From the sequence record ON185586.1: a DNA stretch of 50,477 bases; one strand, given 5' to 3'. A model generated the notes under the pieces. It did not search any database. It saw only the letters and a program-made list of their open reading frames with translations, and was not told the DNA's origin. This document shows, piece by piece, positions 28,842 through 48,670 of this stretch. Source of the stretch: Escherichia phage EC125. The translations under genes were made by a program, and so were the position numbers. Each line of letters starts with the position of its first letter. Position 1 is the stretch's first letter.

Positions 28842-28862
28842 CATAGCATTTTTTGTTAAAAC
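28842..28862 (+). promoter_or_regulatory. 21-bp element with promoter-like module upstream of helicase
   Basis: CATAGCATTTTTTGTTAAAAC then TATTAT 22 nt after TTGTTA. Confidence 0.55.
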
Positions 28863-28918
28863 AGTTTATTGTAATGAGTCTATTATATACTCCAAATGGC
28901 ATTTTTTAAAGGTTTAAG

Positions 28919-30916
28919 ATGATTCTAAATATCGAAAAACAAATATCAGCGTTAGGCGAGGCAGTAATAAAAAGCATCCAAGAGCGATTCACGGTTGGCA
29001 ATATAGTGCCTTATCCTTATCAGTGCGTTGCGTATGCTGAGATCGCAAAGCGCATGAAAAACTATGAGCATCCTTTCTTTGTTAAGGCTTCTGTGTCGGC
29101 TGGCAAAACATTGATGTTTGCGATGGTTGCGGCGCAATGCCGCAAAATGGGATTGAAAATGATGGTCCTTGCTCGCCAGGCTGAAATTGTTGATCAGGAT
29201 TCGGAAGAGATCAGCAATCTTGGAGTGCCAAACTCAATCTATTGCGCCGGACTGAAAACAAAAAGCGCATACTTTCCGATCGTGGTCGGTTCTGAGGGCA
29301 CTGTAGTAAACGGATTGTTTAAGTCGTTAGGTGATTATGTTCCGCACGTTATCGGTATTGATGAATGTCACCAGGTGGATTGGGAGGATCTCGCGGACGC
29401 GATAGAAAATAATGAATCTTACCAGCAGATGACCACTAAGAAGGATTTGCCTGTACTGATTGGAGAAGAACAGCAATTTGATTCCAATGGCGATCCAATG
29501 TTCGGAACAGGGCGCACACAGTACACCGTAATAATCATGGAAATGATGCGTAGGTGTCGCGAGGCATACGGGCACGAATTGCGAATATTCGGCATGACTG
29601 GATCTGAGTTTCGCGGCGTGGTTCCAATACTGGTTGAAGATAAGAACAAAAAGGGATTCTGGCGTGAGCAGGTGACTAACATAGACACAAACTACTTAAT
29701 CAAATTCGGTTCGGTAGTGCCAACAAACTTCGGCGACGTAGGCGACCTGGGTTATGACCTTTCAGAGTTCGAAGCCAGTAGCGAGGATGGCGTTTCAGAC
29801 TTTGACGCTAAAACATTGCGCAAGATGGAAGAAAAGATCCATCAAGACGCAACAATGACACAGAAAATCATGGCTAAAGTCCATGAGATATGCAAAGACA
29901 GGAACGGAGTTTTAGTTACATGCGCAGGGGAAAGGCACTGCAAGGAGGCCGCCGCCGCACTGCCGCCAGGCGTTGAATACAGGATCATAACTGGCAAGAC
30001 TGGAGATAATCAGCGTAAAGAGTGGCTGAGGGAGGCATACGAGGGAAAAGTAAAATACATCTTCCAGGTACAGGCGCTTACCACTGGCGTTAACGTTCCG
30101 TTTTGGGATACTTCTGTAATACTGAGAAAGATAGGATCTCTAACATTGCTTATCCAGCTTTTGGGGCGCGGCATGCGACTGCTTAAGCAATGGCACATTG
30201 AGCAGGGATTCAAGAAAAAAGATCATCTTGTATTGGATTTTGCAGGTACTATGGATGAGTTAGGTGATTTGTATTTCGATCCAATCCTTGAGCAAGCGCA
30301 ATTCCAAAAGAGATTTACAAACGGGAAAGAGCCTAAGACTTGTCCGATATGTGGAACGCTAAACAGCTTTTACGCTCGCCGATGTATGCACGTAGACGAT
30401 AACGGGAAGCGATGTGAGCATTTTTGGACTTACAGAATTTGCGAGGACCAGGTAGATCAGAGAACGAAAAAGATAATCAAGCGCGGTTGCGGAACAAAAA
30501 ACGACGTAGTGGCGAGAGTATGCCGTTGTTGCGATATTTCTCTTGTCGATCCTAACGAGAAGTTAAGCGGTAAGCACTACACCAAAAACGATTGGTGCAA
30601 CGTTAAATCTTTCCGCGTTGATATGACGAAAAACCAGAAAGGAATTATTTTTTGCTATGAGCTTGAGGCCAACGGCGACACGTTCAAGGCATACGAAAGA
30701 TTTTTCCCTGAGTCAGAAAGCAACATTTGCCGGACGATATGGAGAAAAATAGCATTGCAGCACATACCGGATCGCAAGATTGCTGGTATGGTGGCGAGCT
30801 ATAGAAATGCTCGTAAAATAATGTCATACGCTCATCACATCATGCCGCCTGTACGCGTAACGCATCGCAAAAACGGCAAAGGTGAGGATAACATTGCAAA
30901 ACGGGAGTTTGTTTAA
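28919..30916 (+). CDS. SF2 helicase with C-terminal zinc-ribbon region
   Basis: 665 aa; Walker A-like SAGKT, DECH box, Cys clusters near C-terminus. Confidence 0.8.
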   Translation: MILNIEKQISALGEAVIKSIQERFTVGNIVPYPYQCVAYAEIAKRMKNYEHPFFVKASVSAGKTLMFAMVAAQCRKMGLKMMVLARQAEIVDQDSEEISNLGVPNSIYCAGLKTKSAYFPIVVGSEGTVVNGLFKSLGDYVPHVIGIDECHQVDWEDLADAIENNESYQQMTTKKDLPVLIGEEQQFDSNGDPMFGTGRTQYTVIIMEMMRRCREAYGHELRIFGMTGSEFRGVVPILVEDKNKKGFWREQVTNIDTNYLIKFGSVVPTNFGDVGDLGYDLSEFEASSEDGVSDFDAKTLRKMEEKIHQDATMTQKIMAKVHEICKDRNGVLVTCAGERHCKEAAAALPPGVEYRIITGKTGDNQRKEWLREAYEGKVKYIFQVQALTTGVNVPFWDTSVILRKIGSLTLLIQLLGRGMRLLKQWHIEQGFKKKDHLVLDFAGTMDELGDLYFDPILEQAQFQKRFTNGKEPKTCPICGTLNSFYARRCMHVDDNGKRCEHFWTYRICEDQVDQRTKKIIKRGCGTKNDVVARVCRCCDISLVDPNEKLSGKHYTKNDWCNVKSFRVDMTKNQKGIIFCYELEANGDTFKAYERFFPESESNICRTIWRKIALQHIPDRKIAGMVASYRNARKIMSYAHHIMPPVRVTHRKNGKGEDNIAKREFV

Positions 30917-31335
30917 TGGCTATAACTGATAAAGGAGATTATCTTGAGTTTTACGAAAGAGATCCAACCGACACGAGAAAGGAAGTTAATCACCAGATAG
31001 ATAGCTTTCAGTGGTTGACTTATGCTCATCCTTATTTGCTAGCGTGGCATACGGTAAACGAGAATGAGAAGTCGAAAGTAACGGCGATGATTGATCAGCA
31101 GTCCGGCTTGGTTAAGGGGGTAAGCGATTTCATCATCCTGATTGGTTCAAACGGAAAATACCCCTTTGCAGCGATTGAGATCAAACGAGTTAATAAATCA
31201 GGCAAGGGGAAAGCATCACCAGTCAGCGATGAACAAAAGGCTTTTTTGCGTCGCGTTCGCAGTTTAGGAGGATTCGCTGCGGTCGCCTACGGATTTAATC
31301 AGTTTAAGTTAGCTATTGAATACATGCTTAAATAG
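30916..31335 (+). CDS. VRR-NUC domain nuclease
   Basis: 139 aa; ...SDFIILIGSNGKYPFAAIEIKR... PD-(D/E)XK-like core; ATGA overlap with helicase stop. Confidence 0.65.
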   Translation: MAITDKGDYLEFYERDPTDTRKEVNHQIDSFQWLTYAHPYLLAWHTVNENEKSKVTAMIDQQSGLVKGVSDFIILIGSNGKYPFAAIEIKRVNKSGKGKASPVSDEQKAFLRRVRSLGGFAAVAYGFNQFKLAIEYMLK

Positions 31336-31351
31336 CACTTTTTGTTAAAAC
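31331..31351 (+). promoter_or_regulatory. 21-bp element with promoter-like module upstream of dam
   Basis: overlaps stop TAG of VRR-NUC gene; hairpin GGCGC...GCGCC; CATAAT at fixed distance. Confidence 0.55.
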
Positions 31352-31414
31352 TGGCGCGATGGATTGCGCCATAATTCAATAACACGAGATAGCTTTTAAT
31401 AGCGGAGAAATGAA

Positions 31415-32140
31415 ATGGCTAAAGATATTTTAGATAAAGACACCCATGACGCATTCGTTAGCTTTGAGCAGTTGGAGAGAGAAACATTTATAGGGAATGC
31501 CCTTGCAACTGGAGGCCATTACCAGGCAGTAAAGCCAAATCAATATTATAAGGTAAGCGGCAACCGATACGCTGGAAGCACTACGCCGGACGTTGTGCGC
31601 GATATGTGGAGCACGCCTCAAGAGATCGTGGAGTGGATGGAATCAGAATTTGGTGAATACGATCTCGACGCGGCAGCAAGCCATGAAAACGCAGTTTGCG
31701 AGAAGTTCTATAGCAAGGAAACAAACTGCTTAAAGCGTTGGTGGGGTAGCAACAAGCACGTATGGCTTAACCCGCCGTACAGCAACCCAACTCCATTTAT
31801 CAAGAAAGCAATTGAGCAAATGGAGCACAACAACCAAATTGATGTTTTGTTGCCATCCGACAACTCTACAGCATGGTTTTATGAGGCGCAGAAAAACGCG
31901 GCTGAAATCATCTGGATCACTGGCGAGGTTTACGAAGAGGGGGGAGTGGAATATTCCCGCACCGGAAGAATCGCCTTTGTGTCTGGATTGACTGGCGAGC
32001 CTGTACAGGGCAACAATAAGGGAAGCGTGATTTTTGTCATGCGCAAACTTAAAGAAGGCGAGGAGCAGAAAACGCGATACGTTAAGATCAGCGATATTTG
32101 CCCCTCTGTAACCGAACGCCGCGCGCGCAAACGGAGCTAA
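31415..32140 (+). CDS. dam: DNA N6-adenine methyltransferase (phage Dam family)
   Basis: 241 aa; NPPY motif (WLNPPYS); DLDAAAS motif. Confidence 0.8.
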   Translation: MAKDILDKDTHDAFVSFEQLERETFIGNALATGGHYQAVKPNQYYKVSGNRYAGSTTPDVVRDMWSTPQEIVEWMESEFGEYDLDAAASHENAVCEKFYSKETNCLKRWWGSNKHVWLNPPYSNPTPFIKKAIEQMEHNNQIDVLLPSDNSTAWFYEAQKNAAEIIWITGEVYEEGGVEYSRTGRIAFVSGLTGEPVQGNNKGSVIFVMRKLKEGEEQKTRYVKISDICPSVTERRARKRS

Positions 32141-32144
32141 CACG

Positions 32145-32402
32145 ATGAAAAAAGAGAGAAGCGTTTATTTAAATGAAACTGGCGAGTGGTTGTTATTTCG
32201 CGCTATGGTGTGCGATGCACTTGATAAAAACCCTAACGTGAAAAAGATGATTGATTGCGATCCGTGGGAATTTTCAAGCGCATTAGATATGAGCTTTGAT
32301 GAGACAAGGAAACTCCCTCTTGAAAAATGGCACGAACAAATCAGAAATGATATGCAAGAGTTTGTAGATTCGTGGAATTTTCAGAACGGAATGATACACT
32401 AA
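32145..32402 (+). CDS. hypothetical protein
   Basis: 85 aa; GGAG RBS. Confidence 0.5.
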   Translation: MKKERSVYLNETGEWLLFRAMVCDALDKNPNVKKMIDCDPWEFSSALDMSFDETRKLPLEKWHEQIRNDMQEFVDSWNFQNGMIH

Positions 32403-32421
32403 TAGCACTTTTTGTTAAAAC
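32401..32421 (+). promoter_or_regulatory. 21-bp element with promoter-like module
   Basis: overlaps stop TAA; hairpin CCCGGC...GTCGGG; CATAAT at fixed distance. Confidence 0.55.
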
Positions 32422-32477
32422 GCCCGGCATTTTGTCGGGCATAATTATTTCATCGAAACGAACGTGAGGAAATGAAA

Positions 32478-32657
32478 ATGGTAGTATATAGCAAGAAAGC
32501 ATTTGACCAGGCGCAACAAGCCGCACGCGAGGCGGTAAAAGGTGGAACGAAAAACAATATGCAGCTTGATTGGGGCGCTGCAATGATTCTACTTCGCGTT
32601 GCATATGGTCACTACCCATTAGAATTTGCGGAGGCATATTATAAGCATGAAGGTTGA
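32478..32657 (+). CDS. hypothetical protein
   Basis: second in-frame ATG chosen for RBS spacing; about 59 aa. Confidence 0.4.
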   Translation: MVVYSKKAFDQAQQAAREAVKGGTKNNMQLDWGAAMILLRVAYGHYPLEFAEAYYKHEG

Positions 32658-32889
32658 GCAAGGTAGAGAGGCGGTATGGAATCACGCTAAAGAATGCGGA
32701 ATAGCCGACGATATAAAGAAGATCGCGCAATACTTTGATATTGCAGATGTGAGCATAATTAGCGGAGATAAGATGACTTTCCTCAAGGAAAGGCCGCGAA
32801 AAATGGTAAGAGTTCCAGCAGTTCCAACAAAAATTGATTTCAAAGAGGCAATGGCTAAAATCCGAGAGCCTCGCAAATATTATAAATGA
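32647..32889 (+). CDS. hypothetical protein
   Basis: about 80 aa; track start is TTG; start uncertain. Confidence 0.4.
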   Translation: MKVEQGREAVWNHAKECGIADDIKKIAQYFDIADVSIISGDKMTFLKERPRKMVRVPAVPTKIDFKEAMAKIREPRKYYK

Positions 32890-32983
32890 GGATAGTTATC
32901 ATGTGGCGCTTGTTTGTTCTACCGTTACCCGTTATCATCGCTGTTACAGTTATGTACCATATAGTGATGAGATAGGTAGCAGA

Positions 32984-34099
32984 ATGAAAAATGTAAAAAT
33001 TACAGATGAGCAATTCAAGATCGAACGGGCGGCGGGTAAGACATATAAACAGATCGCTCAAGAGTACGGAATGAATGTGAGAAGCGTCGAGCGTCGCGCG
33101 GCGCGACTTGCAAAGCAAGGCCAAGTATCCACAATTGGAGCGCCTGGTTTTGGCGTTCATGGTGAGTCAGTAATGACTGACAAAGAAGGCAACATAATCC
33201 TAAAGTGGACTAAAACCAGCAAGGATAAAGAGCAATTAGAAGCATTAATGCGCGCAGCAATGGAGGCATTTAGCGAGGAAGTGCCGCGATTAGATCCGGT
33301 TCCATTACAGGAGCGCGACTATAACGAAACGCTTTCCTTGTATCCGATCTTTGACATGCACTTAGGCGCTATGGCCCATAAGCACGAATGCGGCGAAAAT
33401 TGGGATACTGCCACAGCAGAGCGCGTTATGAATAACTTTATCGACTATGCTTTAATGTGCGCACCGGATAGCGAAAAGGCTGTCATCCTGATTGGTGGCG
33501 ATATGCTGCATAGCGACGGCCTGGAGGCGGTTACACCTGCAAGCGGTCACGTACTGGATCAAGATAGTCGATATGCAAAATTGGTTTACGTTGCCATCCG
33601 TGCAATGCGACGCGCAATCAATAAAATGTTGTTAAAGCATAAACATGTTGAAGTCCAGATCGTAGAGGGCAATCATGACCAATCAGGAATGATTTGGCTA
33701 CGCGCAGCAATGGCGGCAGCATATGAAAACGAGCCGCGCGTTTACGTTGATGTTTCCCCTCGCGTTGTGCACCACACGCAATACGGAAAAACTTTCCTTG
33801 CGTACCATCACGGGCACACAGTGCGTAAACCGGAGGCTTTGCTAATGATGTGCGCGTCAGATTGGCGGGAGGACTTCGGAAACTCAAAAACGATGTATGC
33901 GCACGTAGGGCACTGGCATCACCAGACCGTGACAGAAACGTCGCTTGGCATCGTTGAGGTGCATAGCACCCTGGCGGCAAAAGACGCATACGCAGCGCGC
34001 GGTGGCTGGCGATCTCTACGCCGTGCGGCGGTTATCATTTACGACAAAGAGCATGGAGAGGTTGGGCGATTTGTTCACTATCCAGAAATGATGAATTGA
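32984..34099 (+). CDS. calcineurin-like metallophosphatase with N-terminal HTH-like region
   Basis: ATG at 32984; motifs IFDMHLG, GGDMLH, GNHD; N-terminal ...KTYKQIAQEYGMNVRSVERR... Confidence 0.7.
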   Translation: MKNVKITDEQFKIERAAGKTYKQIAQEYGMNVRSVERRAARLAKQGQVSTIGAPGFGVHGESVMTDKEGNIILKWTKTSKDKEQLEALMRAAMEAFSEEVPRLDPVPLQERDYNETLSLYPIFDMHLGAMAHKHECGENWDTATAERVMNNFIDYALMCAPDSEKAVILIGGDMLHSDGLEAVTPASGHVLDQDSRYAKLVYVAIRAMRRAINKMLLKHKHVEVQIVEGNHDQSGMIWLRAAMAAAYENEPRVYVDVSPRVVHHTQYGKTFLAYHHGHTVRKPEALLMMCASDWREDFGNSKTMYAHVGHWHHQTVTETSLGIVEVHSTLAAKDAYAARGGWRSLRRAAVIIYDKEHGEVGRFVHYPEMMN

Positions 34100-34244
34100 T
34101 GAATTTTTATTTAAATCAATGACAAATTAAATCAAAAACTTGCAAAGGGGCGGCGTTTGTCGCCTCTTTTTTTTGTTTAATTTTTTACCATGTACGTTTA
34201 TCATGCGGTCAATATATTGACTTTAATTAATATGGAGAATAAAA

Positions 34245-34460
34245 ATGAAAGATTTTATTAACGCAGCTACCGCTGGATCTGGCGGTTCATCTATCGCAAG
34301 CGCCGCTACAGGGCAGTTAACCATTGCTATTGCCAGCTTTGTTTTAATGGCTGCATTCGGTGCATGGGGCGCTTACCTTCGCTGGCGTGATAGTAAAAAA
34401 TTCCACGAGGCGATCGAAAAAGGTGATATTCAAAAAGCTATTGAAATCAGGGGCAAGTAA
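34245..34460 (+). CDS. holin (putative)
   Basis: 71 aa; hydrophobic segment and charged C-terminus; directly upstream of endolysin. Confidence 0.6.
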
Positions 34461-34951
34461 TGAGCATAAAGAACAGGGTAGCGGCGGCGGCCTTTGGCGT
34501 TGCGGTTGCCTTGACTTCTCCACTTCTTGAAGAGATCGAAGGGGTAAGATACAAGCCATACAAAGATATTGCTGGAGTATGGACGGTTTGCGCAGGAATC
34601 ACCGGACCAGATGTTATCCTGGGGAAAACGTACACTAAAAAAGAGTGTGATGCTTTGTTGGCTAAGCATATCCAGGTTGCTAAAAAGGAAGTTGACAAGC
34701 AAGTTAAGGTTGATATTCCTGATAGTATGCGTGCAGCAATGTACTCATTCACTTACAATGCAGGTGTGGGAGCTTTCAGAAATTCAACAATGCTGAAACT
34801 CATCAACCAGGGGAAATTAAACGAGGCTTGCGATCAGCTTTATCGTTGGACTTATTACCATAACCCAAAAACAGGAAAGCGCGAGAAGTCTAAAGGCTTA
34901 CTTAACAGGCGCAAGGTCGAATACAAATATTGCACAATGGATCTGAAATGA
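34460..34951 (+). CDS. endolysin (lysozyme-like muramidase)
   Basis: 163 aa; lysozyme-like sequence; TAATG overlap with holin. Confidence 0.8.
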
Positions 34952-35343
34952 TGAAGAAATTTTTAATCGCACCAATCGCAATGGCGGTGATCTTGTCTGG
35001 ATGTTCAAGCGTTACGCCACTGACCGGATTAATCGGCAGTAAGCCGGAAATCACAGCGCAGGCTGGCGCGGAGAACGTGAAGCAGACAGTTGGCATTACA
35101 GCAAGGCAGGACGCCAGCACAAAACAGGAAACCACAATAAAGGAATCTGCGGTTGACAAGGTGGACACGTCCAGCAAGAAGGATTTCACAACATCAACTA
35201 TTCAGGCCAATACCATCAAGGCAGACAAAATTCAGGTCGTGCAGGGTAATAACGGCAGATGGTACGATCCGGTAATCATATGCGTGGTTGTGTTAATTGT
35301 GCTGATTTGTCTTTACTGGAGAGAAAAGAAAAAGGAGGCTTAA
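34948..35343 (+). CDS. unimolecular spanin (T1 gp11-like)
   Basis: N-terminal lipoprotein signal (LSGC) plus C-terminal transmembrane segment; ATGA overlap with endolysin; followed by terminator. Confidence 0.65.
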
Positions 35344-35358
35344 TGCCTCCTTTATTTT
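35332..35358. terminator. bidirectional terminator between lysis cassette and leftward early block
   Basis: AGGAGGCTTAATGCCTCCT flanked by A-run and T-run. Confidence 0.55.
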
Positions 35359-35582
35359 TATGCGTCGGGCCACATATGAGTTTCGTTTGTTGGCTTGTTC
35401 GATTCGTCGTACTGCCTTACTTCAATGCTGCAAGTGTCGCCGTACATTTCTGCAATCTTGCGCTCATTTTCAACCGCCGATTGCTCACTCCAGCCTGAAT
35501 CATTATCGTAAACTGTCGGGATTTCAGAAGAAGATCCATTTGCATGATTGTATACGCGAACTACTAAAAACTTGCTGGACAT
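35358..35582 (-). CDS. hypothetical protein
   Basis: about 74 aa; internal ATG chosen after AAGGAAAAA. Confidence 0.45.
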   Translation of the reverse strand: MSSKFLVVRVYNHANGSSSEIPTVYDNDSGWSEQSAVENERKIAEMYGDTCSIEVRQYDESNKPTNETHMWPDA

Positions 35583-35645
35583 AATTTTTCCTTTTTTGTT
35601 GGTTCGTTTCGATGAAACAAATATACCCGACACAAGGTCGGGAGT

Positions 35646-35666
35646 TTTAACAAAAAATGCTATTCC
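35646..35666 (-). promoter_or_regulatory. 21-bp element with promoter-like module (leftward)
   Basis: minus-strand reading AATAGCATTTTTTGTTAAAAC, hairpin, TATATT. Confidence 0.5.
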
Positions 35667-35780
35667 ATACGCTTTACTGTAACCAATAACACACCATCAT
35701 CATTGCATAAAACGTGTTCAGTGGTGCTAAAAGCTCGCATATCTGAATAAAGTAGCGTAAGTAAAGCATGAATAAAATCA

Positions 35781-36176
35781 TCATGTGATATTGAATTTAC
35801 GGCGCAGTGCTTCAAGATCTTGTCTATTAGCTTTTGCCTGCAACAATTCATCATCGCCCATCTCCCCTATTCTAGCCATATCCCTGATCCAGTCGTTGCG
35901 CATACCATCCAGGCTATAAAATTCGAATCCGAAAGGCCGCTTTGACGATCCTTTGGACCAGTATTTACCGCATACCCCATCTATATAGCCAGCCGTCATC
36001 ATTCTTGCGCAAAATTCCTTAGATGCAAGGCTGGCGAACATTCGCGGAGTAAGTCCGGCGGCCCGTGCGAGCCGCTCACATTCTCTATGCTGATAGATAA
36101 ATTTGGCTATGTGCTGCCTGTTAAACCAGTCGTATGACTCACACCATTTATACAGATCAAGCAAAAACATAATCAT
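35781..36176 (-). CDS. hypothetical protein
   Basis: 131 aa; ATGA overlap with upstream gene. Confidence 0.45.
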   Translation of the reverse strand: MIMFLLDLYKWCESYDWFNRQHIAKFIYQHRECERLARAAGLTPRMFASLASKEFCARMMTAGYIDGVCGKYWSKGSSKRPFGFEFYSLDGMRNDWIRDMARIGEMGDDELLQAKANRQDLEALRRKFNIT

Positions 36177-37753: not shown

Positions 37754-37805
37754 TCGTTAGCTTCTCCTTTGTGGGCCGTAAATTTTAACGGCCCAATACT
37801 ACCCC

Positions 37806-37826
37806 GTTTTGTCAAAAAGTGCTATT
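37806..37826 (-). promoter_or_regulatory. 21-bp element with promoter-like module upstream of 526-aa gene (leftward)
   Basis: variant with TTGACA; hairpin GGGCCG...CGGCCC; TAAAAT. Confidence 0.5.
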
Positions 37827-38426: not shown

Positions 38427-38480
38427 GATTAGATCTCCTTTGTTTGTTCGATGTGATTATGCCAGGTTTTTACACCTGGC

Positions 38481-38500
38481 TTTTAACAAAAAGTGCTATT
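38481..38500 (-). promoter_or_regulatory. 21-bp element with promoter-like module (leftward)
   Basis: overlaps stop of C5-MTase gene; hairpin CCAGGTG...; CATAAT. Confidence 0.55.
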
Positions 38501-39206: not shown

Positions 39207-39216
39207 CGTCATTACC

Positions 39217-39554: not shown

Positions 39555-39595
39555 TTCCACCTCATTTAAAAGGCGGCAAAACGCCGCCATATTAA

Positions 39596-40143: not shown

Positions 40144-40385
40144 TAGATGATCTCCATGTATGTTTCAAAGCCATTTAACTTGAACAGGCCGTTTTCACAT
40201 TTGCGAACGTTCCAAGTTAGCCATGAGTGGTACGCCTCCATATCATCAAGGTCAATGGTTATTTCAGCACCTTTCTTAAACAAACCTTTTTCGTGAGACT
40301 TGTCGCGCTTAACAACTTTAACATCAACCTGATTTTCCATCTTTAAATCCTCGTTTGTTGTCGATGCGCTTACTATACCAATCAT
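40143..40385 (-). CDS. hypothetical protein
   Basis: 80 aa; preceded by motif-type promoter. Confidence 0.45.
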   Translation of the reverse strand: MIGIVSASTTNEDLKMENQVDVKVVKRDKSHEKGLFKKGAEITIDLDDMEAYHSWLTWNVRKCENGLFKLNGFETYMEII

Positions 40386-40396
40386 CAGCGCATCGT

Positions 40397-40416
40397 TTTT
40401 AACAAAAAGTGCTATT
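40397..40416 (-). promoter_or_regulatory. 21-bp element with promoter-like module (leftward)
   Basis: overlaps upstream stop; TATAGT at fixed distance. Confidence 0.55.
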
Positions 40417-40679: not shown

Positions 40680-40905
40680 GGTTATTACTCCTTATCGTAA
40701 AGATTTAAAGACGTATAGTTTATTGCGGTAACTATATATCCGCATTGTTATTTCTCGCAGCGCAATATATTCCTTCCTGTTTTCCGGCAGACTGGCGAGC
40801 AACAACAGGCAGTATTTATAAGCGCGGTCAAGATTCCTTTCCGTGCCCCTGCAATATCCCTTATTGCTCCTGGAGCGGTACAGCCATAACAATTTCTTGA
40901 ACATT

Positions 40906-41641: not shown

Positions 41642-41701
41642 TTACTATCTCCTGAGCGGTTCGTTTCGATGTGTGTAATGTACCCGATCAGGTGGCATGA
41701 G

Positions 41702-41721
41702 TTTTAACAAAAGGTGCTATT
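41702..41721 (-). promoter_or_regulatory. 21-bp element with promoter-like module heading the leftward early operon
   Basis: variant ...CACCTTTTGTTAAAAC; TACATT at fixed distance. Confidence 0.5.
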
Positions 41722-42275
41722 TGACGGTTATCGCCAGGATTGCGATCGAAATAATCAAAAGTAATCATTAGTAATCAAATCACGTCAAAATGATGATTGC
41801 CTTTGCAAATTTGATGAGAAAAGCAATCACGTTTAATCATTGGTTGCAGGGGAGATAGTGAAACCTTCCCCTCTTGCCTCACTTTTCCGCCTGGCTGTCA
41901 GCGGTTGTTGTCTTTTGTTCACCCCTGTTACCGATTTCAGGCGGCGTGTTTCCGCGCGGTTTTCCGGTGTATCGAAAACGGAAAAAACAAAAAAAATCCT
42001 TTATAATACATTGAAAATAAAGATTATTTATTTATATATATCTATAATGTTTTCTTTTTGTTCTCACTGTTACAGTGCTTTTTGTTGGGTGTGGTGTGGT
42101 TGTGTGTTGGTATATATGGATAGTTGCGCGCGCGGCGGATTGCATATGTATATATACTTTTTCCGGCGGATTGCGTTAACAGCGTGAACAGAAAAATAAC
42201 AGCCCTGAAATCAATAACTTGCGCATGATTTTGTAGTTTTTCGATATTGGTAACGTTTTGAATACAACAAAAACA

Positions 42276-42303
42276 TTGACACGCACCAAATAGCTTTTAT
42301 AAT
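42276..42303 (+). promoter_or_regulatory. near-consensus sigma70 promoter (TTGACA-16-TATAAT) for the rightward early operon
   Basis: hexamers read directly; homologous in layout to the promoter at 21627. Confidence 0.55.
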
Positions 42304-42334
42304 GCGCCAACAGTCAACAACTGGAGGAAAGGAA

Positions 42335-42799
42335 ATGGAACAGAAGACCACTAAGGACTATTGCGATTGGCTTCGCGAGCTTGGTCGCCGCCTGGCTAGT
42401 GGCGATATTGAAGAGTATAAAATGTCACTAATTGACCTGGCCGGAATGTTAAGCGGTGACGACTGCTACAAGATCACGCGCAGTTCATCCTACAGCCGGA
42501 CCATTATCAACCGCGTTCCAGAAGTAAGGGCCGCAGGTCGGGTAAGCATCAAGGTAGAGGAAACGGAAGATGATAAATTTTACGTTTTCCGCATGGTCCG
42601 CGAATCGAAAAGGAAAATCATCACACCCGAAGAATTGCCAGCCATCAAGGCAAGGGCGATCAAAAAGTTTGCCGATCGCATACTGGCAGCAATCCCGAAT
42701 ATCGTGGACCTGGAAGGGGATAAACTGGCTGGGGCTTGCGAGGGCGTAAGCCGCTACCAGGATATGATCCGCGAAATCATCAAAGAGGAAGAGCAATGA
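42335..42799 (+). CDS. hypothetical protein (first gene after strong early promoter)
   Basis: ATG at 42335 after GGAGGAAAGG; about 154 aa. Confidence 0.5.
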   Translation: MEQKTTKDYCDWLRELGRRLASGDIEEYKMSLIDLAGMLSGDDCYKITRSSSYSRTIINRVPEVRAAGRVSIKVEETEDDKFYVFRMVRESKRKIITPEELPAIKARAIKKFADRILAAIPNIVDLEGDKLAGACEGVSRYQDMIREIIKEEEQ

Positions 42800-43068
42800 A
42801 AAAGGCATTAATCAGCGTTTTGGCGGCAATGGCATTCCTGACCGGATGTAAAGAAGATGGCGCGCATGTTGGCAATGTGCAGATGGCTAACCCTGGCGAT
42901 GACTACAGCGTAAGGGAGCTATTCACCGCTGACGGTTGCACCGTTTACCGATTCTATGACGATCGCACTGTTTACTTCACCAACTGTAAGGGCACGACTA
43001 GCTGGGAAGTGTCGAAAAGCAATGGCAAAGGCACGAAGACAGAACATATGACCGTCGAGACAAAATAG
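42796..43068 (+). CDS. small lipoprotein (second candidate superinfection-exclusion factor)
   Basis: ATG at 42796 overlapping upstream stop; signal peptide with lipobox LTGC; CTVYRFYDDRTVYFTNC. Confidence 0.5.
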   Translation: MKKALISVLAAMAFLTGCKEDGAHVGNVQMANPGDDYSVRELFTADGCTVYRFYDDRTVYFTNCKGTTSWEVSKSNGKGTKTEHMTVETK

Positions 43069-43084
43069 CACTTTTTGTTAAAGC
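43064..43084 (+). promoter_or_regulatory. 21-bp element with promoter-like module
   Basis: overlaps lipoprotein stop TAG; CATAAT at fixed distance. Confidence 0.55.
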
Positions 43085-43162
43085 TCGAAAACGATAACCA
43101 GGCATAATAAATCACATAGGGCGGCACGGCGTCGCCCACAAAACCAATCAGGAGAAAGCACC

Positions 43163-44056
43163 ATGTTAAAACTTGCTGACATTAAATTCCCGATCACCTT
43201 CGAATCTCGCGGCATTGGTCATTACATTTTTACTGATGAAAAAACATGCCATAAAGTTGATCTTCATAGCTACAAGCGTGCGCCATCAGACATGGAGATT
43301 GAACACTTTATTGATGCGCACAATACGCAGTACAACGCACTTAAAGACTATGGCTATGCAATGCCAGGCTACACATGTTTGCACTACAAGCCATATAAGG
43401 GCCAAGTTTTACCAGTGCGCTCACCGGAACGCGCAGAGATTCCGATGGTTCATATGAAAACCTGCGACTACAAAAAGCTGTGGTGCTTAAGTCTGGACAA
43501 TATCAAGTATCCGATCACGTTCCGCACGACTGCTAAGTCAACGATTCGCTACACATCGCGCGAAAATGGCGTTTATAGCGATGGTACGAAATCAGGGTTG
43601 AAAGTTGATTTCTTTGTCAACGGTCACAATAGATACAATCCGCACAACGAAGAGGATAAAGTGTACTACGTGGAAGACATTACAAAACACTTATTTGGAG
43701 AAACTCCATTCGGCGGCGGTAAGACGTCAATTCAAAAAATCATTGGCGATGAGATCCACAAAGCGGCTGCCGAAATGAAAGCGCCTGGAGGCTGGCGTAT
43801 TGACAAGAGCGCATTTGCAAATCAAGAAATCGTAACGCAGGGCGCAATTGAAGATATGCCAGTTGCAGCCACTCTAAAAGGAGTCCGGCTTGATGACGGC
43901 ACCTGGTATGAAGTAACGGCTACACCAAAGACGATCGAGATTCATGATGACGTTGTTATCCTTCTGCTTCACTACGGCGGCTATAAAAACCGGACGATTG
44001 CAGGTGAGATCAGCATTAAGCGCGGAACGATGGTTAAGTGGAAGGTGAAGATTTGA
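43163..44056 (+). CDS. hypothetical protein with internal duplication
   Basis: 297 aa; LADIKFPITFESRG... repeated as LDNIKYPITFRTTA... Confidence 0.5.
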   Translation: MLKLADIKFPITFESRGIGHYIFTDEKTCHKVDLHSYKRAPSDMEIEHFIDAHNTQYNALKDYGYAMPGYTCLHYKPYKGQVLPVRSPERAEIPMVHMKTCDYKKLWCLSLDNIKYPITFRTTAKSTIRYTSRENGVYSDGTKSGLKVDFFVNGHNRYNPHNEEDKVYYVEDITKHLFGETPFGGGKTSIQKIIGDEIHKAAAEMKAPGGWRIDKSAFANQEIVTQGAIEDMPVAATLKGVRLDDGTWYEVTATPKTIEIHDDVVILLLHYGGYKNRTIAGEISIKRGTMVKWKVKI

Positions 44057-44132
44057 GTTTTCTCACTGCGGCGCACGTCGCCGCATGGATCGGATTGTTT
44101 TCCTACCTGTTTAGCTTTTATTGAGGTGAGAG

Positions 44133-44285
44133 ATGGCTACCTGGATTTTGCTGATTCTTATGATTGATGGCGGCGTTGACAATATCGAAATGAATAGCCA
44201 GCAATCTTGCATTGAGGCACGAGAGCAGATCAAGAACAACAACAGGTTTTATGCGTACACTCACACGCTATGTATTAAGAAATAG
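44133..44285 (+). CDS. small membrane protein (50 aa, not in ORF track)
   Basis: ATG after GAGGTGAGAG; MATWILLILMIDGG...; stop TAG lies inside motif copy at 44281. Confidence 0.35.
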   Translation: MATWILLILMIDGGVDNIEMNSQQSCIEAREQIKNNNRFYAYTHTLCIKK

Positions 44286-44301
44286 CACTTTTTGTTAAAA
44301 C
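44281..44301 (+). promoter_or_regulatory. 21-bp element with promoter-like module
   Basis: overlaps stop of 50-aa ORF; TATAAT 21 nt after TTGTTA. Confidence 0.55.
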
Positions 44302-44354
44302 TCAAATGTGGGTCCAGGTATAATGGCCTCACTTTCAACGAAGGAGATAAAACG

Positions 44355-44576
44355 ATGTACATTAAAAAGAAGATGAAATGCGTTTCCGTTAACTATGCTT
44401 GCTCTGGCATGTTCAAGCCTGGCGAAATCTATACGGCGCAAAAACTGAAAACATCAACCGGATCTTTTTACGTGAGCAATAGTAAGGGGCATCGCATGTT
44501 CCTGAACGGCGGCGAAGGCACTAAGGTTATGGCACACGCTATGGTATTGGCTGAATTTGAGGAAGTGAAACAATGA
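44355..44576 (+). CDS. hypothetical protein, tandem paralog 1
   Basis: ATG after AAGGAG; shares ...FYVSNSKGHRMFLNGGEGT...AEFEEVK pattern with next ORF. Confidence 0.5.
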   Translation: MYIKKKMKCVSVNYACSGMFKPGEIYTAQKLKTSTGSFYVSNSKGHRMFLNGGEGTKVMAHAMVLAEFEEVKQ

Positions 44577-44818
44577 TCATTGAAAACAATTTTCTTTGCG
44601 TTAAGAGCAATAGACCATTCTTCACACCTGGCAAGGTGTACCAGGGCAAGAAGGACACAAGAGATGGTCACTCTTATCATGTTCACTGCAACAACGGATA
44701 CAAGTTTTACCTTAACGGCGAGAATGGAACTGAGATTGTTGCGTTTGAAAACGTAGTTGCCGAGTTCGAGCAGATTACAGACGCGGAATTTGAGGAAGTG
44801 AAAGATGAAAACAAATAA
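44573..44818 (+). CDS. hypothetical protein, tandem paralog 2
   Basis: 81 aa; ...YHVHCNNGYKFYLNGENGT...AEFE...AEFEEVK; ATGA overlap. Confidence 0.5.
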   Translation: MIIENNFLCVKSNRPFFTPGKVYQGKKDTRDGHSYHVHCNNGYKFYLNGENGTEIVAFENVVAEFEQITDAEFEEVKDENK

Positions 44819-45026
44819 GCGCGTCAAGCACAGGTTTACTGATAACCACGGCGACGCGATTGATGTATACAAGTTCGGCGATCGCGTGTTTATTGATGGC
44901 ACGTTTGAAGGTGGTCGTAGGCCGGATTTTAGGTCGATACTTACCGTTGACCAAGTGCGCAAGCTGGCAGATAAGTTAAATGATCTGGCAGATGAAATAG
45001 AATACAAGCAAATCCATTTTAATTGA
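44805..45026 (+). CDS. hypothetical protein
   Basis: 73 aa. Confidence 0.45.
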   Translation: MKTNKRVKHRFTDNHGDAIDVYKFGDRVFIDGTFEGGRRPDFRSILTVDQVRKLADKLNDLADEIEYKQIHFN

Positions 45027-45037
45027 TAGGTTTTATA

Positions 45038-45748
45038 ATGAAAAAATACACTTTCGAACTATGGGGCAATAAGTACGAATTTACGACAAGCAAGCCTATT
45101 GTTGTGTGCGATCTCGACGGCACACTATCGGACGGATCGCATCGTTTGCATTTGCTGCCAACTGAAAACTTACACCTTACGGAATCGTGGAGCGAATTTA
45201 ACAGGGCCGCCGCCGGAGATTCACCGATTAAAAGCACGATCGCGGTTATTAACGGTTTATGGGTGTCGGGATTTGCCATCGTCATCTTGACCGGACGCAG
45301 CGACGAGGTTCGCTACGAAACCTGCAAATGGTTGAATGAGAACGGCGTGAAGTTTGACGAAATCATCATGCGCCGCCAGGATGACAACCGAAAGGATACG
45401 GTTATTAAAGAGGAAGCCTTGCGCGCTATTTGCCTGGACAACATTGTTTGCGCCTTTGACGATTCGCCGAACGTGGTTAAGCACTTCCGCAGCTTGGGGA
45501 TCACAACCTATCAGGTCACGGAATACGACAAGCCACACGCTCACATACAATCTCACGGCGTGGAATCAATAAAGATCACGAAGCGCGCCCGATTCGTCGG
45601 CAGCAAAGACAGCCTGGTTAATGCCAGCTTTATCAAAGGCAAGGTTTATGATGTTAATAGCCATGATAAAAACCGATTCTTTTTGTGGGATGAAAAAGGT
45701 TTTGGCTGGTGCTTTGAACACGACGACGGCGATTTTGTTAATGCGTAA
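45038..45748 (+). CDS. HAD-superfamily phosphatase (putative nucleotidase / polynucleotide 3'-phosphatase)
   Basis: ATG at 45038; motif VVCDLDGTL (DxDGT), later ILTGR and FDDS; about 236 aa. Confidence 0.55.
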   Translation: MKKYTFELWGNKYEFTTSKPIVVCDLDGTLSDGSHRLHLLPTENLHLTESWSEFNRAAAGDSPIKSTIAVINGLWVSGFAIVILTGRSDEVRYETCKWLNENGVKFDEIIMRRQDDNRKDTVIKEEALRAICLDNIVCAFDDSPNVVKHFRSLGITTYQVTEYDKPHAHIQSHGVESIKITKRARFVGSKDSLVNASFIKGKVYDVNSHDKNRFFLWDEKGFGWCFEHDDGDFVNA

Positions 45749-45767
45749 TAGCACTTTTTGTTAAAAC
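45747..45767 (+). promoter_or_regulatory. 21-bp element with promoter-like module
   Basis: overlaps stop of HAD phosphatase; hairpin GGGCTT...AAGCCC; TATAGT. Confidence 0.55.
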
Positions 45768-45822
45768 ATCTTAACGGGCTTGCGGTATAGTAAGCCCATC
45801 AACAACAAGCGAGGATTAAATC

Positions 45823-46086
45823 ATGGCTAACAAGATCGAATTTTTCAAAGCGGTAGACATTATTGATGGCGCTCCTAGCTTCTTTGCCATCCATTCCATT
45901 GACGGCAAGGATATTGGGTACAACGTTATCCGTCGAGATGGAATCTCAAAACTTAGCGATCTGGTAGGGAATATTGTGTCAAACGGGAAATGCGCATGGC
46001 CCGATTCGCCACGAGAGCCACGCCGCCGCGACATGGTAGAGCCTGTTCTGCTTTACACTCTGGTAGTAGAAGGAGAAAATAAATGA
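45823..46086 (+). CDS. hypothetical protein
   Basis: 87 aa; GAGGA RBS; preceded by motif-type promoter. Confidence 0.5.
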   Translation: MANKIEFFKAVDIIDGAPSFFAIHSIDGKDIGYNVIRRDGISKLSDLVGNIVSNGKCAWPDSPREPRRRDMVEPVLLYTLVVEGENK

Positions 46087-46327
46087 TTTGGTTACTTGCT
46101 TTTTTGGTTGTTTTTCTTTACATTTAAGGCTTGTTTACGTTCCGCGCGTTGGTGAAATATTCTGACGCGACAGACAAAGACGATAAAATCGTTCTCGCTT
46201 TCTGGTTTGTTTGGGTGTGGTTAGCAATTTACGAGATCATCAGAGACAAACAGAAATTTGAGTGGTGATTCTTGCTATGGCGCATTCATGCAGTGCGCCA
46301 TGTTGAGAAAACCTAAATGGGGAGACG

Positions 46328-46477
46328 ATGCGTAACTTTGAAAAAATCATTACCAAAAAGAAGCGTCGCGGGTACGATGAGCATGTGGAGCTTGTGAAAA
46401 AGCAACGCAAGAAGCGCAACGAAGACAAGAAGCGCGGGAAAAAATTTAATGCGATTTTTCGCTATGGAGATCATTAA
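46328..46477 (+). CDS. small highly basic protein (49 aa, not in ORF track)
   Basis: MRNFEKIITKKKRRGYDEHVELVKKQRKKRNEDKKRGKKFNAIFRYGDH; GGAG 3 nt upstream. Confidence 0.3.
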   Translation: MRNFEKIITKKKRRGYDEHVELVKKQRKKRNEDKKRGKKFNAIFRYGDH

Positions 46478-46479
46478 TC

Positions 46480-47070
46480 ATGAAGCGAGACATTATCATC
46501 CTTAATGGGCCGCCAGGTTGCGGGAAGGACACTATTGCAGCTTACCTAACGGGCCATCGTTACCCAGCGGTTAAGGCGTCATTCAAACAGCCGATGTTCG
46601 ATATTGCGTTTTCCATGCTTGGCCCGACTCGATATGATGAGTTTATTGACCTGTACAACGACCGAGAGCAAAAAGAAAAGCCTCAAGTTATCTTAGGCGG
46701 CAAGTCACCTCGACAATTCATGATCTGGATTAGCGAGGATGTAATGAAGCCAGTCTTTGGGGAGCAGTATTTCGGGCGTCGAATGGTTGAAAAGATTAAC
46801 GAGATGTACCGAGATTTGGCGGTTGTGATCAGTGATGGCGGATTCCCCGAAGAAATCAAGCCGCTTGTTAAGGCAGGGCATGAAGTGCATATTTGCCGAT
46901 TGCATCGCGACGGCTTCACGTTTGCTGGCGATTCGAGAGACTACATTGACCTGAGCGGTTATCACTATAGAATCCATCACTATGACTTCCACTTGCAGGA
47001 CGGCAAGCCGGAACTGGCTGTAAACGAGATCGTCAATGCTGTCAAATGGAAGCACACACAGATTAAATAG
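46480..47070 (+). CDS. P-loop kinase (resembles T4 gp1 dNMP-kinase family; nucleotide or polynucleotide kinase)
   Basis: 196 aa; Walker A GPPGCGKDT; family assignment from memory of the GKDT-type P-loop. Confidence 0.5.
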   Translation: MKRDIIILNGPPGCGKDTIAAYLTGHRYPAVKASFKQPMFDIAFSMLGPTRYDEFIDLYNDREQKEKPQVILGGKSPRQFMIWISEDVMKPVFGEQYFGRRMVEKINEMYRDLAVVISDGGFPEEIKPLVKAGHEVHICRLHRDGFTFAGDSRDYIDLSGYHYRIHHYDFHLQDGKPELAVNEIVNAVKWKHTQIK

Positions 47071-47086
47071 CACGAATTGCTAAACG
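47066..47086 (+). promoter_or_regulatory. 21-bp element (variant AATAGCACGAATTGCTAAACG) with promoter-like module
   Basis: overlaps kinase stop TAG; TATAAT at fixed distance. Confidence 0.5.
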
Positions 47087-47140
47087 CGGGGCGCAATGCC
47101 TCGCTATAATGCAAACACCAATCAACGAGAGGAAACAATC

Positions 47141-47542
47141 ATGGTGGAGTTAAACGACATTCGCGTTGGAACAAAATTTCGCGTAACCTGGGCAGATAAA
47201 TATTGTGGCGTTAGCAAGGGCCAGGTTGTTGCGGTGGATAGTATTTATCGTGGTGTTAGTGGTGACTTTTGCCGTCCGCGCATCAATAATGGCTATATCA
47301 TTACTCGCCGTATTGGCTTTGATAATTATTGCGTAGTGGCGACTCAAGGAGTTTTGATTGAGCTTAAGAGAATCAGCGATCATCTCGGTCGTCATGTTAA
47401 GGCAATGAAAACACCATTTCAGCGAGCGAGATACGATGCGCGACGTATGCGCCGACTTGCGCGAAATGCGATCAAGTTCAAAAAGCCTGGCGATGATTTT
47501 TACGGCATGTATAAGGGGATTGCGCGCAATGCTGGGAAATAA
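47141..47542 (+). CDS. hypothetical protein
   Basis: ATG at 47141 after GAGAGGAAA; about 133 aa; preceded by motif-type promoter. Confidence 0.5.
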   Translation: MVELNDIRVGTKFRVTWADKYCGVSKGQVVAVDSIYRGVSGDFCRPRINNGYIITRRIGFDNYCVVATQGVLIELKRISDHLGRHVKAMKTPFQRARYDARRMRRLARNAIKFKKPGDDFYGMYKGIARNAGK

Positions 47543-47641
47543 CAATAACGCAACGAATCCTAAGCCACCTTTTGATTTTCATTCCGCAATGATTGCGGTA
47601 TTATCAATGCTACTTTTTCTTTATAGCATGAGGGCGCTACT

Positions 47642-47890
47642 ATGGTTTTTAACGCATTGAAACGACTGTTTAAGCCGGAATACCGGATCGTATTTTGCCG
47701 CGACTGTTCTACTTATCATGTGCAGCGACGCAGCTTAGGCGGCAATTGGCACTATGTTACAGACGACTTTTTCGGCATCATTGCCACTGAATTTAAGTAT
47801 TACAGCGATGCTTATATGTACGTCAAGAAGCGCCACCGCTTACGCAAGTGTCGTTTTTCCGTGCTGATTCACGTTAATGATTGTTACTGA
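47642..47890 (+). CDS. hypothetical protein
   Basis: 82 aa. Confidence 0.4.
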   Translation: MVFNALKRLFKPEYRIVFCRDCSTYHVQRRSLGGNWHYVTDDFFGIIATEFKYYSDAYMYVKKRHRLRKCRFSVLIHVNDCY

Positions 47891-47897
47891 GGTGAAA

Positions 47898-48080
47898 ATG
47901 AAAACTGGTATTATTATTCTTTTCCTGATTTTTTTCGGCAGTCATTTAACCATTAACTATGAGGGCATTATGGCCTTTTGGGGCAACTTGATGATGTTTG
48001 TCGCTGGTTCAATTGCTGGCTACTCTGACGGGAAAAAGGATGGTGTGCGCAAGATGCTGATGGGGCTTAAACAAAAATAA
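47898..48080 (+). CDS. small membrane protein
   Basis: about 60 aa; two hydrophobic segments; GAGG RBS. Confidence 0.4.
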   Translation: MKTGIIILFLIFFGSHLTINYEGIMAFWGNLMMFVAGSIAGYSDGKKDGVRKMLMGLKQK

Positions 48081-48091
48081 GGGGATATGAA

Positions 48092-48382
48092 ATGGCAAAC
48101 AAAACTTACCGCAAGCTACTGGTTAACGCTTTTGAAAACATCGCGCAGTGTAACAAGTGGAACGACTCTAAACACTCGCCAATCACAATGAAGCGCGCCG
48201 GATTCAAAAATACTCGTTCATGGGCGCGAGCTTTCGCAGCTTGCTATATGCCGGATGGCGGACTAGGGGTGATGAACGATTTTTTGATCAACATGATAGA
48301 GGAAGCGGCGCGAGAGGATCGACCGCTGACACAGCGAGATTTTGACGGCTTCGCGCGCGATGAGCTTTACTATCTGAGTTAA
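48092..48382 (+). CDS. hypothetical protein
   Basis: 96 aa; stop overlaps motif copy. Confidence 0.5.
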   Translation: MANKTYRKLLVNAFENIAQCNKWNDSKHSPITMKRAGFKNTRSWARAFAACYMPDGGLGVMNDFLINMIEEAAREDRPLTQRDFDGFARDELYYLS

Positions 48383-48401
48383 TAGCACTTTTTGTTAAAA
48401 C
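48381..48401 (+). promoter_or_regulatory. 21-bp element with promoter-like module
   Basis: overlaps stop TAA; hairpin AAGGGCA...TGCCCTT; TAAAGT. Confidence 0.55.
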
Positions 48402-48457
48402 TTCCGCAAGGGCATTTGGTAAAGTGCCCTTATTGAAGCGAAACAGAGGAAAGCGCA

Positions 48458-48670
48458 ATGAAAATCAAAATCACCAAAATCGACACTATCAACGGCGACG
48501 GATCAATCACTCTTGAGCAATGTGGCTTGGTTGTTGGTGATGTGCTGGAAGTTGACGGACATTTCAGCGACGGATCTTATTGTGTTATTGCGCCGCGCAA
48601 CAGCGAGTTTATCAAGGCTGGCGACAATATTAGTGTTAACCATGACGAATGCGAGGTAGTAGAAGAATGA
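48458..48670 (+). CDS. hypothetical protein
   Basis: 70 aa; preceded by motif-type promoter. Confidence 0.5.
   Translation: MKIKITKIDTINGDGSITLEQCGLVVGDVLEVDGHFSDGSYCVIAPRNSEFIKAGDNISVNHDECEVVEE

Follow-up and report, generated by a model that had tools for sequence, protein, structure and literature searches.

The window analysed here is the complete 50,477-bp genome of Escherichia phage EC125 (ON185586.1), a T1-like virulent siphovirus (Drexlerviridae, Tempevirinae, Warwickvirus). Structural genes occupy about 1–20 kb on the plus strand, and the remainder holds replication, recombination and lysis genes together with two divergent clusters of small early genes. Repeated along this genome is a 21-bp element, ATAGCACTTTTTGTTAAAAC, present in 18 copies, and the subject of this work is the module that the element forms with a -10-like hexamer downstream of it. 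A 19-mer, ATAGCACTTTTTGTTAAAA, has 17 matches at three or fewer mismatches against 0.04 expected, and the 18th copy, at 47067, is diverged (ATAGCACGAATTGCTAAAC). The commonest form is GCACTTTTTGTTAAA, and the bases that vary least among the copies are GCAC, TG and AAA. Fourteen of the 18 copies point toward the downstream gene, and all 14 functional-looking modules fall within 20.9–48.5 kb, the early and replication half. The original prediction, which a model had made from the sequence without database searches, listed about 14 copies; all of them exist, with offsets of about one base, and four more (2093+, 6729-, 10480-, 27281+) lie outside the range it covered.

The element is fused to the ends of genes. 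Wherever a copy has an annotated co-directional upstream gene, the stop codon of that gene is the TAG within ATAG or a TAA overlapping or adjoining ATAG (11 of 11 copies), as had been proposed; the copies at 28843, 41720 and 21257 are situated in divergent regions and have no co-directional upstream gene. The distance from element to start codon is 72–83 nt, with a single case of 98 nt. The repeat as such was known before. The 2024 re-annotation of phage TLS by Ramsey, Kropinski, Misra and colleagues described a 21-nt direct repeat, aaATAGCACnnnTTGnTAAAA, in 21 copies, of which 18 are intergenic, running along transcription about 76 nt before start codons (PMC11447400), and the element in the window is the same one, with like orientation and distance. 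The same authors noted the repeat in T1, Rtp and Rogue1 as well, could identify no more than three sigma70-like promoters in TLS, proposed stoperators, enhancer-binding sites or UP elements, and listed the function as an open question (PMC11447400). Their paper differs from the present account in making no mention of a fixed -10, a hairpin, a marbox or a host regulator. What appears to be new here is the match of the repeat to a host marbox, and hence a candidate function.

MarA, SoxS and Rob, as well as RamA in Klebsiella and Salmonella, bind as monomers to an asymmetric site, the marbox. Its published form, GCANNWWNTGNNAAA, has 17 perfect matches in the window against 1.44 expected, and a stricter form, GCAHWWWWTGYYAAA, has 14 against 0.12; the commonest phage form agrees with all 15 positions of the latter. 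A 20-mer consensus, AYNGCACNNWNNRYYAAAYN, which Martin and colleagues reportedly gave in 1999, yields 17 matches at no more than one mismatch against 1.12 expected. Of the E. coli sites, taken from MG1655, both that of micF (ACAGCACTGAATGTCAAAAC) and that of mar (ATGCCACGTTTTGCTAAATC) agree with the phage consensus at 15 of 20 bases. The positions that vary in the TLS repeat (nnn and n in aaATAGCACnnnTTGnTAAAA) coincide with the degenerate positions of the host consensus; the comparison is free of circularity, each consensus having been derived without the other. The element thus has every feature of the asymmetric box of about 20 bp, namely GCA(C/H), an A/T-rich centre, TG, YY and AAA; it matches the E. 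coli marbox perfectly and is a candidate site for MarA, SoxS or Rob.

The position of the box points the same way. Across the 14 gene-oriented copies the downstream hexamers are TATAAT, TATAGT, CATAAT, TATTAT, TAAAGT, TAAAAT, TACATT and TATATT. Computed exactly, their spacing is conserved, as had been anticipated, although not quite at the 22–23 nt after TTGTTA first given: 12 copies have the first base of the hexamer 22 nt after TTGnTA, two (21257-, 44282+) have it at 21 nt, and none has it at 23 nt. Measured from the end of the marbox, these distances correspond to a spacer of 18 bp in the 12 and of 17 bp in the two. In MG1655, the micF promoter consists of a marbox, then 18 bp, TAGAAT and a start 7 nt further, and all 14 gene-oriented copies share its forward orientation, with GCAC distal and AAA proximal to the -10. 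If transcription starts 7 nt after the hexamer, as is assumed for every promoter position given here, the box spans -50 to -31 with its centre at -40.5 and GCAC at -47 to -44. The best -35 match in the modules averages 2.5 of six, so that no usable -35 is present, while G-14 occurs in 12 of the 14 and TG in three. A standard -35/-10 scan of 28.6–48.6 kb retrieved one perfect promoter, at 42276, and essentially none of the modules. That promoter is exactly the TTGACA-16-TATAAT earlier described as canonical, whereas the second one so described, at 21627, is TTGACT-16-TACAAT and matches at 10 of 12 positions.

Class II promoters of MarA, SoxS and Rob are characterized in the literature by a forward marbox near -41 that overlaps the -35 position, by the lack of a recognisable -35, with 1.9 matches on average, and by a canonical -10; the cryo-electron microscopy structure of Rob and RNA polymerase on micF shows contacts to G-47 and A-45 and a position of Rob that bars sigma region 4 from the -35. 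The modules have the same forward 20-bp box centred near -41, with GCAC at -47 to -44 and (C/T)AAA over a poor -35, and the same 18 bp to a canonical -10. Differences lie on the phage side: the genome is that of a virulent phage with 14–20 copies per 50 kb; its boxes are near consensus whereas host boxes are degenerate; the box is joined to the stop codon of the gene before it and accompanied by a hairpin; and dependence on the activator is a prediction. The marbox match and the micF geometry support the promoter class originally envisaged, in which an ordinary -10 is combined with an upstream site for some factor besides sigma70 region 4 and a usable -35 is missing. We consider it likely that each module is a class II MarA/SoxS/Rob-type sigma70 promoter in which a marbox for a host activator takes the place of the -35, and that most early genes of this phage are probably driven via a host factor of the antibiotic and stress response. 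On this best-supported reading, the modules would extend a known promoter class to a place where it was not expected.

Other identities of the element fit less well. TTGnTA is not a -35, because its spacer to the -10 is 21–22 nt, and no alternative -10 lies 17 nt after it. A sigma54 promoter (TGGCAC-N5-TTGC) has doublets 10 nt apart, whereas the element has AG rather than GG and only 8 nt (TAGCAC-N3-TTGC), and the sigma70-type -10 downstream speaks further against it. No site for IHF, Fis, CRP, DnaA or ArcA could be fitted in a by-eye comparison with their consensus sequences. The lambda nut arrangement of boxA and boxB, suggested by the boxA-like GCACTTT, was set aside, as hairpin loops are unconserved and the -10 is fixed to the element, not to the hairpin. 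The resemblance had initially been described as one to an UP element or an activator site; the activator site stands, and the UP element is the weaker of the two because the invariant GCAC is not A/T-rich. UP elements are A/T-rich, extend over roughly -38 to -59 and are contacted by the C-terminal domain of the alpha subunit (alpha-CTD), whereas this element contains invariant GCAC and TG and reaches -31.

Alternatively, the modules could be factor-independent sigma70 promoters, in which the -10 with G-14 or TG is helped by the A/T-rich TTTTTGTTAAAA as a proximal UP-like element and MarA, SoxS and Rob are incidental or modulatory. The quality of the -10 hexamers and the frequency of G-14 and TG agree with this, UP elements were mentioned by the TLS authors (PMC11447400), and reporter use in uninfected cells, discussed below, does not alone show activator dependence. 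However, a generic A/T tract does not explain the invariant GCAC, TG and AAA, which are the marbox contact positions; the fixed 18-bp distance and single orientation are the geometry of an activator; and UP elements have a more upstream position and a looser sequence requirement. We regard activator-free promoters of this kind as quite improbable.

The geometry is conserved in related phages. Pooled over the window genome, T1, the Klebsiella Webervirus VAC6 and the Braunvirinae phage DTL, the marbox pattern has 64 perfect matches, and TANNNT stands exactly 18 bp after the 20-mer in 41 of them, against a background of 1–1.7% and no more than six at any other offset. About 20 modules with the same spacing are found in T1, about 15 in VAC6 and about 11 in DTL, all of which, like the window genome, carry pir; the element is also present in TLS. 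Modules were not found in Salmonella Skatevirus VSt472 or Vibrio phage K172, which are not Drexlerviridae and whose helicases are 37–44% identical. Since the spacer sequence is unconserved among modules, the constant distance reflects selection rather than recent duplication. With a similar degree of confidence as for the single modules, we therefore read them as what would be a family-wide early promoter set, joined to upstream stop codons and overlaid with RNA hairpins.

Which protein binds the box was approached from both the phage and the host side. A phmmer --max search of the six-frame translation with MarA and the N-terminal domain of Rob returned no AraC/MarA-type phage protein (best E 0.27), which speaks against a phage-encoded activator of that kind. 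A T1 reporter study used inserts of at most 150 bp of upstream sequence plus 15 bp of coding sequence, assayed as fusions in uninfected E. coli, and for Pdam also in an E. coli lysate (PMC6737242). By primer mapping, the T1 Porf65-gfp insert is 101 bp long and contains only 9 nt, the marbox, an 18-bp spacer, TATGAT and the leader; the Pdam fragment has a module, Phol and PrecE have none, and Ppir has a reversed copy in its 5' untranslated region. In that study, Pir has no effect on Porf65 and regulates Phol and PrecE, and Orf65 increases the output of its own promoter fragment, which holds the module only, and decreases that of Ppir (PMC6737242). Pir is thus ruled out as the factor of the element, since Porf65 is unaffected by it and the promoters that it regulates lack the element. 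Orf65 (T1 L002, 4418–4864) has no homologue in the window genome and no Pfam domain, and is ruled out as a universal factor; it could work through host marbox activators rather than on DNA.

Another phage protein, not of the AraC type, could nevertheless bind the element as a middle-class activator or a stoperator-like repressor, the likeness to the marbox being coincidence or mimicry. An element far better conserved than host marboxes, its co-occurrence with Drexlerviridae-specific genes such as pir and its absence from relatives without them would suit such a protein, as would the two effects of Orf65, one on a module-only fragment and the other on a promoter with a reversed copy, and the stoperators and enhancer-binding sites suggested for TLS (PMC11447400). 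Against it, Pir acts on promoters that lack the element and Orf65 has no homologue in the window genome despite the conserved element; T1 module fragments were assayed as promoters in phage-free cells or E. coli lysate; and a chance fit to a 15-position consensus with the exact micF spacing is very unlikely. We judge a phage protein of this kind unlikely, and a host activator is the economical reading because there is no phage AraC gene, the T1 fusions were used without phage, and Pir and Orf65 are excluded. The original idea of a factor beyond plain sigma70 -35 recognition is supported, but with no phage AraC gene and in view of the T1 fragments that factor would most likely be a host protein rather than a component of infected-cell extract.

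Two phage systems invite comparison. In T4 middle promoters, which use the MotA box and AsiA, an activator box replaces the -35 at a fixed spacing before a normal -10. The modules would likewise form a phage promoter class with a normal -10 and an activator box instead of a -35, but the T4 activator and co-activator are phage-encoded and their box lies near -30, whereas here the centre is near -40.5, the site is that of the host and no phage activator is detectable. The stoperators of mycobacteriophage L5 are similarly numerous, short, asymmetric, intergenic and in one orientation to transcription. They differ in that they bind a phage repressor, silence transcription and have no fixed downstream -10; a repressor of this kind is not seen in the window phage, and its element has promoter geometry.

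Several points weigh against host-activated promoters. The identification of marbox and activator draws on sequence and geometry only. Because the -10 hexamers are good and accompanied by G-14 and sometimes TG, the promoters might fire without an activator. Activator supply at infection is also uncertain, since Rob, although constitutive and abundant, is reportedly for the most part sequestered and inactive unless inducers are present, and MarA and SoxS are scarce in unstressed cells. Classical E. coli mutants resistant to T1 have been mapped to fhuA and tonB and are not known in rob, which makes strict dependence on Rob alone unlikely and is also what factor-independent promoters would lead one to expect; one would have to suppose that MarA, SoxS and Rob are redundant or that their basal activity is sufficient. 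Finally, the copies at 2093+, 6729-, 10480- and 27281+ lack the geometry or face the wrong way and are unexplained by the model. A literature search, with most subscription journals outside it, found no paper tying marbox, Rob, MarA or SoxS to T1-like phages and no transcription start site data for Drexlerviridae.

At 28832–28918 the -10 of the helicase module (TATTAT, 28881–28886) and that of a candidate pir promoter overlap in the palindromic TATTATA, and T1 (L002, 36432–36524) has the same overlapping arrangement of pir and helicase promoters. Given this overlap, the two promoters should compete. Activator-driven firing of the helicase promoter would be expected to exclude pir transcription, and such competition would explain the lowered expression of T1 pir when module promoters are boosted.

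The GC-rich inverted repeats that had been noticed near or over the hexamer proved to be significantly enriched. For 56 modules, we folded 40 nt covering spacer, -10 and discriminator and compared them with random 40-nt genomic segments and shuffles: the mean minimum free energy is -11.5 kcal/mol against -5.7 for random segments, the mean z is -2.9, and z is below -2 in 38 of the 56. The hairpins are of two classes. In the first, the stem runs from the end of the marbox to the first bases of the -10, several loops are GAAA or GCGA, and the tail is an interrupted U-tract averaging 4.85 T in the next 12 nt. Two such stems in the window (32422–32440 and 35642–35626) are flagged as terminator-like, three T1 module hairpins are annotated in GenBank as rho-independent terminators, and class 1 hairpins may be read as overlapping terminator-promoters. 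In the second, the -10 lies between the two arms, of which the 3' one is the discriminator and mostly ends at -1 before a conserved A; the tail averages 0.86 T. Ten modules in one register are 98% paired against 73% for shuffles, with slid controls far lower, although the 98% is biased upward because the ten were chosen for stems in that register; the diversity of their pair types is still informative, with changes on both sides in four of six pairs and 19 compensatory cells. The hairpin of the module at 48382 likewise has a compensatory change relative to its T1, VAC6 and DTL orthologues.

The sense-strand fold is the more stable in 33 of 44 modules and the antisense fold in five, while the asymmetry of G-U pairs was uninformative as a strand test (48 sense against 45 antisense). 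A transcript that began at the +1 of its own module would lack both arms, so the hairpin could form only in read-through RNA or in DNA. These folds, their compensatory changes, the terminator annotations and the overlap with stop codons in 11 of 11 cases are what one would expect if the 21-nt element itself acted in RNA, in processing, termination or insulation at gene ends, with the hexamer as part of the RNA signal. Against this, the spacing between element and hexamer is fixed whereas the position of the hairpin shifts; some copies stand in divergent regions (28843, 41720, 21257) or in reverse orientation; the window has no match to Rfam families; and in T1 a promoter reporter was built on a fragment of 101 bp that holds the module only. 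A tRNA scan of the window was likewise negative. The RNA-level alternative raised originally seems right for the hairpins and not for the 21-bp element, for which we hold it to be very improbable.

Under host activation, the modules would work as follows. The 20-bp consensus marbox, in forward orientation, would occupy about -50 to -31, with TAAA overlapping the -35 position, and would be bound by a monomeric host AraC-family activator: Rob constitutively, MarA or SoxS when induced by stress, or RamA in Klebsiella. The activator would replace the contact of sigma region 4 with the -35, touching both region 4 and the alpha-CTD, and RNA polymerase would thereby be recruited to a near-consensus -10 (TAnnnT, G at -14) and start at the conserved A. 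Fourteen such promoters would be placed every 1–2 kb across the early and DNA-metabolism half, each at or against the preceding stop codon. The GC-rich hairpins would form a separate layer, most likely read in RNA from upstream promoters. In spacer-filling stems the -10 and the T-rich discriminator would supply the U-tract, giving an overlapping terminator and promoter; stems that flank the -10 and end at -1 are perhaps 3'-end stabilisers.

The coordinates of the modules, of the remaining copies and of the features discussed with them are collected in Table 1.

Table 1. Predicted promoter modules, further copies of the candidate marbox and associated features in the window
Feature	Coordinates	Strand	Candidate marbox	-10	Remarks
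Module, helicase gene	28843-28893	+	28843-28862 (ATAGCATTTTTTGTTAAAAC)	TATTAT 28881-28886	18-bp spacer; predicted start ~28893; divergent region; adjoins ribosome-binding site of pir-like gene on opposite strand
Module, dam methyltransferase gene	31332-31382	+	31332-31351	CATAAT 31370-31375	Spacer-filling hairpin TGGCGCGA/TTGCGCCA; TAG stop of upstream gene within marbox; same module in syntenic T1 Pdam fragment
Module	32402-32452	+	32402-32421	CATAAT 32440-32445	Terminator-like hairpin 32422-32440; predicted start A 32452
Module	43065-43115	+	43065-43084	CATAAT 43103-43108	No strong hairpin
Module	44282-44331	+	44282-44301	TATAAT 44319-44324	17-bp spacer
Module	45748-45798	+	45748-45767	TATAGT 45786-45791	Hairpin GGGCTTGC/GTAAGCCC flanks -10, ends at -1
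Module	47067-47117	+	47067-47086	TATAAT 47105-47110	GAA-type marbox ATAGCACGAATTGCTAAACG
Module	48382-48432	+	48382-48401	TAAAGT 48420-48425	Hairpin AAGGGCA/TGCCCTT flanks -10
Module	21208-21257	-	21238-21257	TATAGT 21215-21220	17-bp spacer; upstream of leftward cluster 20019-21183, which includes a gene annotated as putative outer membrane protein
Module	35613-35663	-	35644-35663	TATATT 35620-35625	Terminator-like hairpin 35626-35642
Module	37775-37825	-	37806-37825	TAAAAT 37782-37787	TTGACA variant of marbox
Module	38449-38499	-	38480-38499	CATAAT 38456-38461	Spacer hairpin GCCAGGT/ACCTGGC; TG before -10
Module	40365-40415	-	40396-40415	TATAGT 40372-40377	-10 flanked by 9-bp hairpin CGATGCGCT/AGCGCATCG
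Module, first of leftward early cluster	41670-41720	-	41701-41720	TACATT 41677-41682	
Reversed copy, late region	10430-10480	-	10461-10480	TAGATT 10437-10442	Syntenic in T1 (18850-); marbox adjoins ribosome-binding site of rightward gene at 10495
Reversed marbox copy, late region	6710-6729	-	6710-6729		No -10 at module distance
Marbox copy	27281-27300	+	27281-27300		No -10 at module distance; syntenic in T1 (34902+); adjoins ribosome-binding site of leftward side-tail-fibre gene
Marbox copy	2093-2112	+	2093-2112		Contains TAG stop of large terminase; no proper -10 at 18 bp; intrinsic terminator next
Canonical sigma70 promoter (contrast class)	42276-42303	+		TATAAT	TTGACA-16-TATAAT; head of rightward early cluster
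T1 Pir orthologue, helix-turn-helix regulator	28355-28831	-			58% identity
Candidate pir promoter	28910-28882	-		TATAAT	TTTAAA-17-TATAAT; -10 overlaps helicase-module -10

Some further observations concern individual copies. Downstream of the module at 35613–35663 (-), at the usual distance, a ribosome-binding site, AAGGAAAA, and an ATG open an unannotated leftward open reading frame (35358–35633, -); this overlaps the annotated plus-strand coding sequence at 35343–35498, a 51-aa 'hypothetical protein', and that annotation may be on the wrong strand. In the region 10396–10495 the reversed module points into a bidirectional terminator after the major tail gene, with an equivalent in T1 (L002, about 18770–18872), and would be predicted to yield an antisense RNA of about 45–60 nt. 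A diverged marbox-like copy at 16392–16413 (ACAGCACAAAAGGTTAAAA) stands directly before the start of the tail-tip J-like gene, its AAAGG apparently serving as the ribosome-binding site of that gene. T1 has an equivalent diverged copy before its own tail-tip J-like gene (L002, 25021–25042; ATAGCACAAAAAGGTAAAC), and DR8 of TLS (24906–24926; aaatagcacaaaagggttaaaa) is similar in sequence.

The predicted transcripts open with a conserved A/C-rich, G/U-poor leader (ATCGAAACGAAC...) that reaches the ribosome-binding site, for example at 32452–32477, 35588–35613 and 41642–41670. It is common to paralogous modules and to T1, VAC6 and DTL, and may serve translation as an unstructured leader or act as a signal in the initial transcribed sequence. 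At the points where gene clusters diverge there are two long AT-rich non-coding regions, 21184–21684 and 41721–42334; TATATA tracts occur in them together with short repeats, both direct and inverted, such as TTTTCCGG(T/C)G(T/G)AT twice, and the regions are candidates for a replication origin or an early control region.

For the family, the finding offers a specific and cheaply testable answer to the question that the 2024 TLS paper raised on the function of the repeat (PMC11447400). A broader and tentative proposal, which we think somewhat doubtful, is that the Drexlerviridae, T1 included, wire their early expression to MarA, SoxS, Rob and RamA, and that 15–20 replicated marboxes per genome could titrate these activators. 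If so, infection efficiency would respond to salicylate, bile salts, redox drugs and antibiotics; titration would collapse the host mar/sox/rob response (AcrAB-TolC efflux, micF/OmpF), coupling infection to antibiotic susceptibility; and accessory proteins such as T1 Orf65 might boost host activators. If the host-activator reading of the modules is correct, it would bear on promoter annotation in the hundreds of genomes on deposit, in which standard -35/-10 scans retrieve almost no promoters. The overlap of terminator with promoter and the fusion of marbox with stop codon are compact designs of interest to synthetic biology. On the same reading, a large family in therapeutic use, with E. coli, Klebsiella, Shigella and Salmonella as hosts, would start its infection via the regulators of multidrug efflux and porins, which would bear on combinations of phage with antibiotics and on why infection may depend on the stress state of the host.

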